Positions 12,753 to 54,705 of a stretch of 64,000 nucleotides of DNA are shown here, piece after piece (position 1 is the first letter of the stretch; each line of letters opens with the position of its first letter). The notes beneath the pieces were generated by a model. It did not search any database. It had not been told where the DNA came from and saw only the letters and a program-made list of their open reading frames with translations. The translations under genes were made by a program, and so were the position numbers. This stretch comes from Eledone cirrhosa (taxonomy: Eukaryota), in contig OZ024740.1 of NCBI GenBank assembly GCA_964016885.1, forward strand, positions 66,960,001-67,024,000. The letters are read 5' to 3'.

Positions 12753-12840
12753 ATATTACATATTTTTCACAGCCGATCAGCTCGAAGAACGATCAAATAG
12801 TGTTCGATCATGGCTCTGGAATCGGGAGCTCCTCAGATAT
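12753..12840 (-). ncRNA. Type I hammerhead-like motif with a 61-nt insert replacing stem II
   Basis: ATAT CTGAGGA [61 nt] GAAAA ATAT GTA ATAT; homologous to 41197-41289 and 54618-54705. Confidence 0.55.
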
Positions 12841-12913
12841 GTATTCTCACATGTTGATGCAAGTCCAAATGTTGGTATACCACTTGTAAATGCAATTCAT
12901 TTGCACCTCTACT

Positions 12914-15900
12914 ATCTCTCTCTCTCTCTCTCTCTCTCTCTCTCTCTCTCTCTGTAATATATATATATATATATATATATATATATATATATATATATAT
13001 ATATATATATATATGTATATATATATGTATATATATATATATATGTATATATATATATGTATATATATATGTATATATATATATGTATATATATATATAT
13101 GTATATATATATATGTATATATATATATATGTATATATATATATATGTATATATATATATGTATATATATATATATGTATACATATAAATGTATATATAT
13201 ATATGTATATATATATATATATATATATATATATATGTGTGTATATATATATATGTATATATATATATGTATATATATATATATGTATATATATATATAT
13301 ATATGTATATATATATATGTATATATATATATGTATATATATATATATATATGTATATATATATATATATATATATATATATAATATATATATATATATA
13401 TATATATATGTATATATATATATATGTATATATATATATATATATATATATATGTATATATATATATATATATATGTATATATATATATATATATATATA
13501 TAATATATATATATATATACATATATATATATACATATATATATATACATATATATATATACACACATATATATATATAAATATATATATATACATATAT
13601 ATATATACATTTATATGTATACATATATATATATATACATATATATATATACATATATATATATATATATATATATATATATATATATAATATATATATA
13701 TATATATACTACTATATATATATATATATACATATATATATATATACATATATATATATACATATATATATATATATATATATATATATGTATATATATA
13801 TATATATATATATGTATAATATATATATATATATATATGTATATATATATATATATATATATATATATATATGTATATATATATATATGTATATATATAT
13901 ATATATATGTATATATATATATGTATATATATATATATGTATATATATATATATGTATATATATATATATATATATGTATATATATATATATATATTATA
14001 TATATTATATATATATATATATGCATATATATATATGTATATATATATATATATATATATATATGTATATATATATATATATATATATGTATATATATAT
14101 ATATATATATATATATGTATATATATATATGTATATATATTATAATATATATATATATATTATGTATATATATATATGTATATATATATGTATATATATA
14201 TGTGTGTATATATATATATGTATATATATATATGTATATATATATGTATATATATATATGTATATATATATATATATATGTGTGTTATATATATATATGT
14301 ATATATATATATGTATACATATATATGTATATATATATATGTATATATATATATATGTATATATATATATATATATATATATATATATGTGTGTATATAT
14401 ATATATGTATATATATATATGTATATATATATATGTATATATATATATATGTATATATATATATATATATATATATATGTATATATATATATATATATAT
14501 ATATGTATATATATATATATATATATATATATATGTATATATATATATATATATATATGTATATATATATATATATATATGTATATATATATATATATAT
14601 ATATGTATATATATATATATATATGTATATATATATATATATATATGTATATATATATATGTATATATATATATATGTATATATATATGTATATATATAT
14701 ATATGTATATTATATATATATATATATATTATATATATATATGTATATATATATATGTATATATATATATATATATATATATATGTATATATATATATAT
14801 ATATATATATATGTATATATATATATGTATATATATATATATGTATATATATGTATATATATATATGTATATATATATATGTATATATATATATATGTAT
14901 ATATATATATGTATATATATATATGTATATATATATGTATATATATATGTTATATATTATATATATATATATATATATATTATATATATATATATATATA
15001 TATGTGTGTATATATATATATATATATATGTATATATATATATATATATATATATATATATATATATTTATATATATTATATATATATATATATATATAT
15101 ATATATATGTATATATATATATATGTGTGTATATATATATATATATATATATATATATTATATATATTATATATATATTATATATATTATATATATATAA
15201 TATATATATTATATATATATAATATATATTATATATATATATAATATATATATATTATATATATATATAATATATATATATTATATATATATATAATATA
15301 TATATATTATATATATATATAATATATATATTATATATATATATAATATATATTATATTATATATATATAATATATATATATTATATATATATATATTAT
15401 ATATATTATATATATATATAATATATATATATTATATATATATATAATATATTATATATATAATATATATTATATATATATATATATATATATAATATAT
15501 ATTATATATATATGTATATATATATATATATATATATATATATATATAATCTATATATATATAATATATATATATATATATAATATATATATATATATAT
15601 ATATATATATATATAATATATATATAATATATAATATATATATATATATATAATATATATATATATAATATATATATATATATATATATATATAATATAT
15701 ATATATATATATATTATATATATATATATGTATATATATATATATGTATATATATATATATATATGTATATATATATATATATATATATATATGTATATA
15801 TATATATATATATATATGTATATATATGTATATATATATATGTATATGTATATATATATGTATATATATATATGTATAATATATATATATGTATATATAT

Positions 15901-17012
15901 ATATATATGTATATATATATATATGTATATATATATGTATATATATATATATGTATATATATATATATATATATATATATATGTATATATATATATGTAT
16001 ATATCTATATATATATATATATATATATATATATGTATATATATTATATATATATATATATATATATATATATGTATATATATATATGTATATATATATA
16101 TATGTATATATATATATATGTATATATATATATGTATATATATATGTATATATATATATGTATATATATATATGTATATGTATATATATGTATATATATA
16201 TATATATATGTATATATATATATGTATATATATATATGTATATATATATATGTATTTATATATGTATATATATATGTATATATATGTATATATATATATA
16301 TATATATATATATATATATATATATATATATATATATATATATATATATGTGTGTATATATATATATATATATATGTATATATATATATATATATATATA
16401 TATATATATATATATATATATATATATATATGTGTGTATATATAGATATATATAATATATATTATATATATATATATATAATATATATATTATATATATA
16501 TAATATATATATTATATATATATATAATATATATATATTATATATATATATAATATATATATATTATATATATATATAATATATATATATTATATATATA
16601 TATAATATATATATTATATATATATATAATATATATATATTATATATATATATAACATATATATATTATATATATATATAATATATATATTATATATATA
16701 TATAATATATATATATTATATATATATATAATATATATATTATATATATATATAATATATTATTATATATATATATATATATATATATATTATATATATA
16801 TATATAATATATATATATATATATATATATATATATAATCTATATATATATAATATATATATATATATATAATATATATATATATATATATAATATATAT
16901 ATATATATATAATATATATATATATATAATATATATTATATATATAATATATATATATATATATAATATATATATATATATATATATATATATATATATA
17001 TATATATATATA
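12914..17012. repeat. About 4-kb interrupted (TA)n microsatellite preceded by (CT)n
   Basis: Directly visible. Has G-, C- and TT/AA-interrupted subdomains and is the source of many spurious YI-repeat ORFs. Confidence 0.97.
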
Positions 17013-52110: not shown

Positions 52111-53601
52111 CCACGCCCGCGGAAGACGATACGATCCAACGCAGGGCGGAAATGAGTGGCGGCGGGGAGACCACCGTGTCAGCAGAACAACACCCAGAGA
52201 ACGAGGAGAGGGGCCTGACAGATCAAGGGCCAGCCGTCCGAAATGAACAATTTAACAACAGAACGTGCAACTGCAGAGCGGGCACACAGTGCCCCTTGCA
52301 GGGAAGATGCCTAACGAAGGTCCTGGTATATAAACGTGTGGTTAGCACGCACAATATAAAGCGCACCTACATTGGCGCAACATCCACGACCTTTAAATCA
52401 TGGATGTATAACCACACAAACTCTTTCAAGGACCGGAGCAAGAGGCACTCTACTAGGCTGGCGTCCTGAAAGACAAAGGCACCCCGTATACCCGCAACTG
52501 GAGTATCGTTCGGCACGCGAATGCATATTCGGCTGGAAATAGAAAGTGTTGGCTATGCCTATCTGAGGTTATGGAGATAGTCAGACTGAAGGATGATACG
52601 GTCAATCTGAAATCGGAAATAATCATGACGTGCAGTCACCAGAGAAGGTGCACACTCCCTGCATGTAATGCACCGGGCAGCCCAAGCTAAAGGTATGCGG
52701 CGGAGCGCACGCCGACCAAAGCGGCGAAAAGGGTTCAAGAGATCAGACACCATACCCTGTTGACTATATATGCCCCGTGGGGTAAGCGGAAATAACCCAG
52801 GATGCCTACCCGAATCTGCACGTCACCTTAGGCAAGATCATCACCTGAGCCGGTAAAGGTTGACCCGGATTCCATTGATATTCAGTCAAATGCCTTACAC
52901 CAATAATACACTATACCTCAACCACAGTGACATACTACAGTATGCCCCCCTACATGTGTATCTTTTCAGTAGAGAGTACATACTCTCCACGTATTCCATT
53001 TTGTAACACCTAATGTATTTTCCGTATACAGGCCCACGTGTGTATCTCATACTTCTCTTGTATACTATCTCATATGCATACACGTTCCTTCTTTTTTATA
53101 TATATTCTGCAGGCATTTTCTATGTATGGTCTGCGCATACTATTTACTTTAATACCATGAACGCCCATTATGTGGCTTTGCGGGAAGATTCCATACGTGG
53201 ATTGATCCATGTTCGCAACGTAACAACATCTCTGTAGATACATATAACTGAGCGCACCCTTTCATGTATAGCCCACAATGTATCTCAATGTACCCTTATA
53301 TGTATATTTTTAATATATTTTATACTTTTTTATATATATGTATATGCGTATATGTATATATATATATATATATATATATATATATATATATATATATATA
53401 TATATATATATATATGTGTGTGTGTGTGTGTATATATGTAGGAGGTGAGTTTTATTGTAGTACAATAAAGCAATGCAGATATCGGATAAGAAGCACTCTA
53501 CAGTTTGTAGGACTGGAGTATACATAATATATAAGAATATGTTGATTTAAAACTGCACTATCCACAAGTGTTTTTTAGCCTTCATATCATGTCCTCCTGT
53601 T

Positions 53602-53665
53602 TTATCTGATGAAAACACAAATATTATTGCATGATGATGTTTGTTTTTGAAATGCGCATAATAAA
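53602..53665 (+). ncRNA. Degenerate hammerhead-like motif with long stem II
   Basis: TTAT CTGATGA AAACACAAATATTA..TGATGTTTGTTTTT GAAAT GC GCATAA; same layout as 40687-40740. Confidence 0.45.
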
Positions 53666-54617
53666 ATACATGGAACTCCTTTAACCATCTTTTGTTCTTA
53701 TATATATATGTGTATATATATATATATATGTGTGTGTGTGTGTGTGTGTGTGTGTGTGTGTGTGTGTATTTTCTATGTATGTACATGTTTATAACAAGTT
53801 GCATCCTTTCATGTATGACCCATTGTGTATCTTTATATGACTTTGTGTGTATATTCTATTTATGTATATATATATGTATATATTTTTTTCTATGCGTGCG
53901 TGGGTGTGTATGTGAATATGCACATATTTGTAGGAGTGTATATGAGCCAGTGTGTGTGTGTGTGTACAAGCACGACTGTAGGGAAAGGGCTTGTTTGTGT
54001 ATATACATGTGTGTTTGCGAGCGAGTGTGTATCTGTTCGTGTATATATGTATATGGGTACGTGTGTGTATGTGTGTGTGCGTGGGTGGAAGGGGAGGGGG
54101 TATATGTATATGTCTGTATGTATATGTCTGGATGTGTAGGGTATATATACGCGTATGCATGTGTATGCACATATGTGTGTGTGTGTTGTGTGTGTATGTT
54201 GATGTATATAGGCATGTGAGCATGCGTATGTGTTTTTATATGTTCCTCTCTGGATGCATGTATACGTATGTTTATATGTTTATATGTTCTCGTTAAATGT
54301 GTGTGTATAGCTGGAGGCTATGCGTACGACTGTCGTTATCTATGTGATTATGTTTGTGTGTGTGTGTGTGTGTGTGACTGTGAGTGCGCGCGTGGATGTG
54401 TAAACTACCAAACACAGCAGTAATTTATTGAAGTGTAGAGACATGGGGACAGTCAACGCCCTGATGGTCAGCGGACTCTGTACCTGTGGTTAGAATTATG
54501 ATGACGTAGACAACCAGCGGCCAATCACAGGACACGCGAACAGGATGAAGGTTTTGACGGTACTGGCCCAGAGGGTCAGACACCCCAGTGAGAGAATATG
54601 CTCCGAAATCATTAGAC

Positions 54618-54705
54618 GTGTCCGTCGAACCTGCGGGTCCAGAATCAGACAGATCCACACAATGATCACGTCTCGAGCTGTCCGCCGGCGAAACAATTGT
54701 AACAC
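54618..54705 (+). ncRNA. Hammerhead-like motif with a 61-nt insert in a PLE pseudo-LTR (twin on the minus strand at about 51180-51267)
   Basis: GTGT CCGTCGA [61 nt] GAAAC AATT GTA ACAC. Confidence 0.5.

Follow-up and report, generated by a model that had tools for sequence, protein, structure and literature searches.

Background

Penelope-like retrotransposons (PLEs) carry hammerhead ribozymes in their pseudo-long terminal repeats (pseudo-LTRs), and dimer formation via stem III has been proposed for these ribozymes (PMC4209133; PMC6765202). To cut, the hammerhead of an anole PLE requires addition of the protein that the element encodes, and reverse transcription of that element starts from two downstream sites (PMC11167929). 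Why PLEs keep weak hammerheads is an open question, on which the one biochemical study found protein assistance but no protein site (PMC11167929). A "long helix II" means 6–8 bp in the available portion of PMC13725137, and the relaxed hammerhead search described in the accessible sections of PMC8557442 used spacers of 7–17 nt.

Here, we analyze a 64,000-nucleotide stretch of the Eledone cirrhosa genome (assembly GCA_964016885.1, contig OZ024740.1, positions 66,960,001 to 67,024,000, forward strand; hereafter "the window"), in which a first-pass annotation had noted four hammerhead-like loci with a 61–62 nt insert in place of stem II. By comparison with copies across the genome (3.0 Gb in 1,796 contigs; all results cover this one genome), we find that the motif is a new form of PLE hammerhead under selection, that the loci are 3' ends of Hydra-clade PLEs, and that a conserved module in the middle of stem II is a candidate binding site for the element's protein.

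A hammerhead with a long, structured stem II

Stem I, the core, the insert, GAAA, stem III, and GUA follow one another at all four loci (A–D; Table 1) just as first described. These copies score 66.5 (A), 90.2 (B), 99.1 (C), and 93.5 (D) bits with R2, a covariance model derived from 18 copies located in other parts of the genome, and over 94 places they differ from their lineage majority at 9, 5, 1, and 3 places, respectively. A loose hammerhead descriptor gave 12 matches in 200 kb of neighbouring DNA versus 0–1 per shuffle (10 shuffles).

Among 247 copies parsed with an insert range of 50–75 nt (a sample rich in best matches), 226 have inserts of 60–63 nt. We placed 210 inserts in fixed columns, 194 of which fall into 11 lineages of 4–34 copies; 16 inserts in small or mixed clusters and 14 copies of 63 nt were left out of the alignment. 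Because copies decay after insertion, lineage majorities were compared. Counting lineage I, which was found later with R2, a type I hammerhead with a palindromic stem III of 8 nt and a stem II of 60–63 nt is common to twelve lineages. Outward from the core, stem II begins, usually, with a mismatch at 10.1–11.1, followed by 2 bp, another mismatch, 5 bp, and a bulge of 2 nt. Next come 3 bp, a purine loop (2x1), and 2 bp; beyond a single bulged pyrimidine lie 4 bp, an internal loop, and the apical hairpin. In copy C, the central module comprises the CAG/CUG helix, the 2x1 purine internal loop, UC/GA, the bulged pyrimidine, and the next pairs.

RNAfold reproduces this fold in single copies of B, C, F, E, G, and B2 (z from −1.2 to −3.4); z is −1.1 for a decayed A copy and 0.0 for an I copy. 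RNAalifold gives the fold for two alignments. The case for stem II nevertheless rests on comparison, because single-sequence folding of the window inserts only modestly beats shuffles (z from −1.1 to −2.0).

As the null, we used our own simulation (not R-scape) of independent change on the tree, with per-column change counts and the mutation spectrum of the copies. Stem II is paired in 217 of 231 cells, compared with 182.5 in this tree-aware null (matched in 0 of 3,000 simulations), and 8 of its 21 pairs occur as more than one Watson–Crick type (null 3.1; P = 0.0007). Specifically, the basal 7 pairs and the middle 9 pairs pass the null, whereas the 5 pairs of the apical GATC..GATC hairpin show no covariation (48 of 55 cells versus 46.2; P = 0.40). 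Stems I and III, each paired in 43 of 44 cells, also exceed it (P = 0.002). Pairing was kept in about 20 of 28 between-lineage changes versus 95 of 264 within-copy changes (Fisher P = 0.0004). Because the fold had been derived from a B copy, the test was repeated without B lineages on a tree from outside the insert, with a similar outcome (121 of 128 cells paired versus 91.5; 0 of 1,500 simulations). In 18 natural copies, 91.5 per cent of cells are paired (slid controls: 27–41 per cent), and 13 of 28 pairs changed on both sides.

Lineage I, with an insert of 61 nt in 15 of 15 parsed copies (5 of 20 were unparsed), keeps the purine loop and the bulge, has UGG/CCA for CAG/CUG (two compensatory changes), and carries another apical hairpin. 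We regard it as an independent comparative confirmation of the module structure. The alignments thus indicate that the pairing of stem II, together with the sequence of its middle, is under selection.

Stem I is 4–7 bp long. Stem III, first described as near-palindromic, is perfectly palindromic over its 8 nt in the majority sequences of 8 of 11 lineages, with G–U pairing in two more, and changes in a compensated manner; its pairing probability in the monomer is 0.00–0.12, and its self-duplex has an energy of −2.9 to −13.3 kcal/mol. GUA is found in 10 and GUC in 1 of the 11 lineages, and A15.1–U16.1 and C15.2–G16.2 are invariant (the decayed window copy A has a private C15.2 to A change). Position 10.1–11.1 is G–C in G and I only, G–U in A, U–A in B3, and a mismatch in 8 of 12 lineages; such a mismatch is tolerated in some natural hammerheads, according to the available part of PMC3088659.

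No Watson–Crick loop contact beyond chance was found across lineages. A pseudoknot between the apical loop and the flanks was rejected: its best fixed helix occurs in 5 of 11 lineages and competes with stem I, and free-register helices equal shuffles. Also rejected was the opposite strand as the functional one, as its folds differ among lineages and the frame shares the core's strand.

The larger sample thus agrees with the first-pass annotation that the insert covaries, and specifically that its basal helix does. The CAG/CTG helix is not invariant as claimed (UAG/CUA and UGG/CCA occur), and the apical GATC hairpin is present in most lineages but was replaced in lineage I. The proposed extra module exists as a large, structured, and selected domain, although it extends stem II, continuous with the core, rather than replacing it; its constrained length holds within the module clade but not in the sister families described below.

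Conservation of the module and the core

Across the 11 lineages, 13 of 18 module columns are invariant. The module underwent 0.33 changes per column, about seven times fewer than its upstream (2.6) and downstream (2.3) flanks; the apical loop has 2.6 changes per column and the 5' strand of the core 1.1. It is located 11–12 nt from the core in 12 lineages, its unpaired bases are conserved, and it has been kept though the lineages' flanks share 18–57 per cent and their endonucleases are 42–55 per cent identical. Additionally, the majority sequences of all 11 lineages carry an A[A/U]UAAA hexamer that starts between +7 and +9 (mean in shuffles, 0.45), and in lineage I it has moved to +15; this AAUAAA-type hexamer after stem I may be a poly(A) signal.

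The canonical core, CUGANGA...GAAA, is found in 6 of 12 lineages (F, G, A, B2, B3, and I). Variant cores have U4C (F2, C2, and B), U4C plus A6U (C), or one extra base (E1 and E2), and U4C arose at least twice. In the 11 lineages, variation is confined to U4, A6, N7, and the one inserted base, so that 11 of 14 positions are invariant; C3, G5, G8, A9, G12–A14, and two stem III pairs are the same in 11 of 11, and H17 varies only among allowed bases. The CCGUCGA core is not a product of decay, because 521 exact copies share it (3.7 per cent divergence from their own majority).

The first-pass annotation held that the insert may be kept while the core drifts. Variant cores have indeed been amplified by active elements, CCGTCGA among them, but most core positions have not drifted, and two of the reported deviations are private to window copies: ACGAGGA reflects a C3A change in copy B (the lineage core is CCGAGGA), and GAAAA in copy A stands for a lineage majority of GAAAC. 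In the variant-core subclade, neither the core (12 of 14 invariant; P = 0.19) nor the module (15 of 18) is distinguishable from flanks with 29 per cent of columns variable; the subclade is too shallow to show relaxed selection on the core.

In lineages G and A, the module's 3' strand has the sequence CUGAUC immediately ahead of GAAAC (L453:1541–1576, −). This resemblance to a second 5' core, probably due to chance, produced the sole weak Rfam hammerhead match.

Host elements

The loci are, by their sequence, 3' ends of Hydra-clade PLEs. Window positions 51135–54830 hold a truncated element plus its inverted partner: motif C lies about 2 kb downstream of the endonuclease, and D sits in an inverted truncated copy (51135..51311, 95 per cent identical to 54574–54750) joined to the main copy's 5' side. 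An inverted truncated partner on the 5' side is also drawn for PLEs in the figure 2 legend of PMC8557442. The CxCX5C linker and GIY-YIG endonuclease are found in the window translation and in locus L141, and the N-terminal motif RMRWR in locus L524 matches the Hydra-clade RWK motif. Pfam scans gave no family for the Hydra frames, and the reverse transcriptase (RT) matches in the window belong to remnants of long interspersed nuclear element (LINE) type. The RT thumb block has 34,129 first-look candidates genome-wide. The clade Neptune, our first guess, was abandoned on comparison with the Hydra-clade features in PMC8557442.

Where motif and endonuclease are linked in C, C2, E, F, and F2, the motif lies on the endonuclease strand, 1.1–2.9 kb downstream, in most copies. 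Upstream extension of 20 loci linked an endonuclease to A (2 of 3), B2 (1 of 4), and G (3 of 4), each 42–55 per cent identical to the C type, and none to the 63-nt form (0 of 2 extended loci). Of 94 distinct endonuclease matches, 25 have a parsable downstream hammerhead (17 with the module), 27 had room without a hammerhead, and 42 had too little flank. An endonuclease tree of this genome's copies plus three homologues does not resolve G, H, and the C/E/F group. A single origin of the module is likely because of homology, although the tree does not settle it. A and B as a short non-autonomous element were rejected, as their 5' ends vary and longer copies exist.

Element copies are 5'-truncated and either end in (TA)n about 50 nt past the cut site or extend to about +128; the optional tail between these ends is present in 63 of 175 copies with enough flank. 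By analogy with the anole element, the two 3' ends likely mark two reverse-transcription start sites. The tail, a candidate site for recognition by the RT, is homologous across lineages and carries the conserved stretch GAGUGCU as well as a small hairpin with at least one compensated change (GCUC/GAGC versus, in one B copy, GCCC/GGGC). Insertions of one lineage into or beside the ends of another are frequent (L072, L025, L077, and L370), which fits a shared (TA)n target preference.

Two of 10 loci extended 5' reached the frame start. Locus L524 (with L449) is a full tandem, with motif and tail ahead of an ATG that lies 184 nt from the motif; the other locus keeps just the last 25 nt of the tail. 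Because the motif occurs both behind the endonuclease and before the ATG, it is part of the pseudo-LTR. This position and the palindromic stem III, weak in the monomer, support the earlier suggestion of a PLE pseudo-LTR hammerhead of dimer type, with the host now refined to the Hydra clade. The elements are about 4.5–5 kb long, the endonuclease-to-hammerhead distance alone being 0.9–2.9 kb. The 58-nt unit between thumb and endonuclease is present in four to five exact copies in the window element, and other copies have long low-complexity expansions preceding the thumb (L142).

Abundance and sister families

Searched as an exact pattern, the 3' half of the motif has 9,115 genome matches, and the reversed pattern, used as a control, has 0. 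Similarity searches with C, B, and A gave 2,452, 2,260, and 1,055 first-look candidates, which overlap and are not copy numbers; the 40 scored in each search have identities of 97–99, 90–93, and 81–90 per cent, respectively. In 400 kb chosen irrespective of the motif, R2 gives 4 matches above 50 bits and 2 at 34–35 bits, a density that points to roughly tens of thousands of motif copies in the genome. In this genome alone, descriptors limited to a short stem II, and Rfam searches likewise, thus overlook at least 9,115 hammerheads and likely tens of thousands, a point of relevance to claims that some PLE clades lack hammerheads.

Sister Hydra families have stems II of 38, 47, and 103 nt without the module, each with a canonical core, and some copies have a Hydra endonuclease upstream. 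Family H (47 nt) is young, with 97–98 per cent identity among 1,382 candidates, and scores only 20–22 bits with R2; its partial tandem in L510 begins within stem II. Family J (L546–L560, e.g., L187:4065–4198, −) has the 103-nt stem and the same basal mismatch pattern, and a J-related form of about 100 nt is found at L149:75–208. The 38-nt form was seen in one copy. Hydra elements of this genome therefore tend towards long stems II across families, and by comparison it is the 60–63-nt module that marks one group, of at least twelve lineages.

The window also contains ordinary hammerheads with a 13-nt stem II at 50497–50544 (+) and 50935–50982 (+), from a partial tandem of another PLE family with an inverted partner near 50315–50478; Rfam did not detect them.

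Possible roles of the module

We favour the reading that these are pseudo-LTR hammerheads of a Hydra-type PLE clade whose stem II module is a candidate binding site for the element's protein, aiding folding and cutting, and give it a probability of about 0.5. Recognition by the element's own protein is a guess, at about even odds, guided by the anole system; the RT-binding or dimerisation signal proposed in the first-pass annotation is likewise a hypothesis. Two copies would pair through the palindromic stem III, and a transcript spanning two pseudo-LTRs would be cut after GUA within the dimer, with the element protein bound to the module and helping the RNA to fold and cut. The resulting unit-length RNA would start with the frame leader and end with the long stem, and the template would be uncut or re-joined RNA, on which copying would begin at the two start sites that lie downstream of the motif. 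Such help, if present, would account for the continued spread of lineages weakened by U4C, A6U, an extra base, or a 10.1–11.1 mismatch. A protein is preferred because no RNA loop contact was found, the cores weaken, and the anole hammerhead needs one. In the absence of a loop contact, something else must stabilise the fold, and the conserved unpaired bases of the module fit a recognition site.

Several observations weigh against this. By comparison, the module is dispensable for Hydra proteins in general, because sister families spread without it and the stems in the consulted part of the published Hydra set are short (PMC8557442). No Hydra frame was linked to lineage B in any of 3 extended loci, and the 10 loci extended 5' contained one full tandem of a module-bearing element. 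The 11 lineages amount to few independent changes, the compensated double changes numbering about 8. In lineages C and E, there may be hardly any cutting, because natural hammerheads with A6C or an insertion after A6 have low activity (PMC3088659, in its available part). Finally, the minimal insertion template of the anole element starts at frame +20, past most of stem II, and cleavage is dispensable for its insertion in vitro (PMC11167929).

A bolder version is a hammerhead subtype that gained a protein-recognition domain, in which protein binding would switch cleavage on and a nearly dead core would be licensed only inside the element's own particle. We hold it only tentatively; if true, the twelve lineages would range by degrees from a ribozyme that is self-sufficient to one that depends on the protein. 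One genome in any case offers a conserved candidate site and a natural series of cores, canonical to degenerate, on one scaffold.

No protein would be required if the module were an RNA-only folding aid, docked on stem I, the A-rich strand that follows it on the 3' side, or the dimer partner in place of the usual loop I–loop II contact. The fixed distance between module and core, the conserved purine internal loop and bulge, the A-rich hexamer at a near-constant place, and the GATC arms, self-complementary in most lineages, would all suit such docking. Yet stem I, at 4–7 bp, ends below the module's height, lineage I has both a shifted hexamer and no GATC arms, loop–flank helices are no better than chance, and the cores weaken rather than sharpen, which makes this account rather unlikely.

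We also think it unlikely that B, C, and E cut marginally or no longer at all and that the long stem serves another step as a scaffold: template recognition, the choice between poly(A)-site use and read-through, or translation of the reading frame, which begins 184 nt further downstream. Repeated U4C, the fixation of A6U and of the extra base in lineages that later spread, the 521 exact CCGUCGA copies, core conservation indistinguishable from flanks in the variant-core subclade, and the poly(A)-type hexamer 3' of the cut site can be read in this way, as can the anole element's cleavage-free insertion. Against it stand the core bases and stem III pairs invariant in all 11 lineages, an H17 within its allowed bases, the continued covariation of stems I and III, and the canonical core kept in half of the lineages.

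Tolerated padding, whereby any stable stem II suffices and the features in common stem from shared ancestry and from selection for mere pairing, would match the range of stem lengths among this genome's Hydra families, the unconstrained apical loop and stem, and the long stems II listed as deviations for two plant PLEs in the consulted part of PMC8557442 file S2, but is improbable given that the length, the unpaired bases, and 13 of 18 module columns were kept in elements as diverged as these in endonuclease and flanks.

Other features of the window

The features are collected in Table 1. The lineage-A fragment sits amid microsatellites. One LINE-type remnant is duplicated at 90–92 per cent identity, and one copy of the dispersed short repeat lies directly behind the C tail; with its tRNA-like look, this family resembles short interspersed nuclear elements. 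The inverted repeat at the end of Table 1 is likely a small DNA-transposon remnant.

Table 1. Coordinates of hammerhead motifs, host-element parts, and other repeats; positions refer to the window unless a locus is named.
Feature	Position	Strand	Remarks
Hammerhead motif, lineage A	12750..12843	−	canonical core 12836-12830; stem II 12829-12769 (61 nt); stem III and GUA 12768-12757
Lineage-A fragment, whole	12700..12912		element 3' end on − (about 12700-12870); inverted-tail remnant (about 12875-12912)
Hammerhead motif, lineage B	41196..41290	+	core 41203-41209; stem II 41210-41271 (62 nt); stem III and GUA 41272-41283
Lineage-B fragment, whole	41176..41340	+	5'-truncated; terminates in (TA)n at first of two 3' ends
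Motif D	51269-51178	−	61-nt stem II; inside inverted 5'-truncated element 3' end
Hammerhead motif, lineage C	54615..54708	+	core CCGUCGA 54622-54628 (U4C, A6U); stem II 54629-54689 (61 nt)
Lineage C stem III (palindromic) and GUA	54690-54701	+	predicted cut after 54701
Central module in stem II, copy C	54640..54681	+	5' strand 54640-54648; 3' strand about 54672-54680
AAUAAA hexamer just 3' of stem I	54708..54713	+	
Optional tail between the two 3' ends	54752..54830	+	ends about +50 and +128 from cut site
Broken C-terminal part, Hydra-clade PLE frame	51312..52700	+	motifs checked visually against section 11 and the supplement alignment of PMC8557442
RT thumb block	51642-51866	+	resembles by eye Hydra rows of PMC8557442 supplement alignment
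58-nt tandem repeat in Hydra frame	51869-52110	+	between thumb and endonuclease
CxCX5C linker	52266-52292	+	
GIY-YIG-type endonuclease	starts about 52319	+	
Element 3' untranslated region	52701..54614	+	long, microsatellite-rich; common to other copies up to 1.5 kb upstream of motif
Family H hammerhead	17056-17135	−	canonical core; 47-nt stem II; GATC hairpin; no module
Family H inverted partner	about 17155-17284	+	
Hammerhead-like motif	L192:9668-9779	+	stem II about 80 nt
Hammerhead-like motif	L140:8092-8210	−	stem II about 88 nt
Hammerhead-like motif	L182 near 3280-3345	+	stem II about 38 nt
Hammerhead-like motif	L064:442-501	+	stem II about 26 nt
LINE-type retrotransposon remnants	24683-26969, 29001-32753, 32899-34983 (−), 46448-47437		Pfam RVT_1, zf-RVT, endonuclease
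Dispersed short repeat family	36476-36800, 54892-55069, 56139-56260, 20187-20323, 8305-8386		tRNA-like look
Near-perfect inverted repeat	49972-50109		arms of about 55 bp; top spurious microRNA match in Rfam scan

Comparison with known systems

Existing Rfam models do not cover the motif. Its core and zero-loop palindromic stem III fit Hammerhead_1 (RF00163, clan CL00010) in the 3' part, but with E values up to 10 allowed RF00163 did not match the C copy, and on a lineage G copy it gave only a partial match of 19.7 bits (cut-off 34), missing the real 5' core. A scan of the window at E up to 5 had no hammerhead in the best 150 of 235 matches, all of low-complexity microRNA type. No such domain was reported in the literature searched, outside which stood Repbase, Dfam, Lunse 2017, and Weinberg 2015, the latter two of which could cover it; nothing alike was found in the available portions of PMC10085705 and a retrozyme preprint (10.64898/2026.07.22.740005). 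A too-loose pattern scan of metagenome contigs returned 120 stretches, 0 of which fit the profile, and is uninformative on other species.

PMC8557442, in the sections and files available to us, contains the nearest precedents for a split core. PLE-X1_sMoe, PLE-X1_sTam, and Chlamys-3_cBra also have a long stretch between the core halves, and Naiad "half cores" lie 35–50 nt apart; these belong to other clades and are single consensuses for which that material reports no structure model, covariation, or shared module. Three motif strings had no match in its Hydra or Naiad consensus files, although line breaks could hide one. The Hydra-clade hammerheads described there share with ours the clade, the 3' position, the (TA)n targets, the 5-nt-centred stem III, and a frequent unpaired base on each side of the base of stem II. 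In contrast, the published Hydra rows in file S2, including octopus, have canonical cores, stems II of 3–7 bp, and loops of 3–10 nt, and the elements are shorter than 3 kb.

The minimal or dimer hammerheads of metazoan PLEs, as far as the available parts of PMC4209133 and PMC6765202 describe them, have the same type I topology, pseudo-LTR site, short stem I, and palindromic stem III predicted to need a dimer, and likewise occur in many lineages per genome, with compensatory changes and mostly as solo truncated copies. Their helix II has 6–8 bp, compared with about 20 bp in 60–63 nt and a conserved module here, and it is in our lineages that G10.1–C11.1 is mostly lost and variant cores are fixed in young lineages.

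The anole Poseidon element likewise has a hammerhead in its pseudo-LTR followed by two RT start sites that bound an optional tail (PMC11167929). It belongs to another clade; its frame starts inside a short stem II rather than 184 nt past the cut site, and its tail is 30–40 nt long, compared with about 78 nt in the elements described here.

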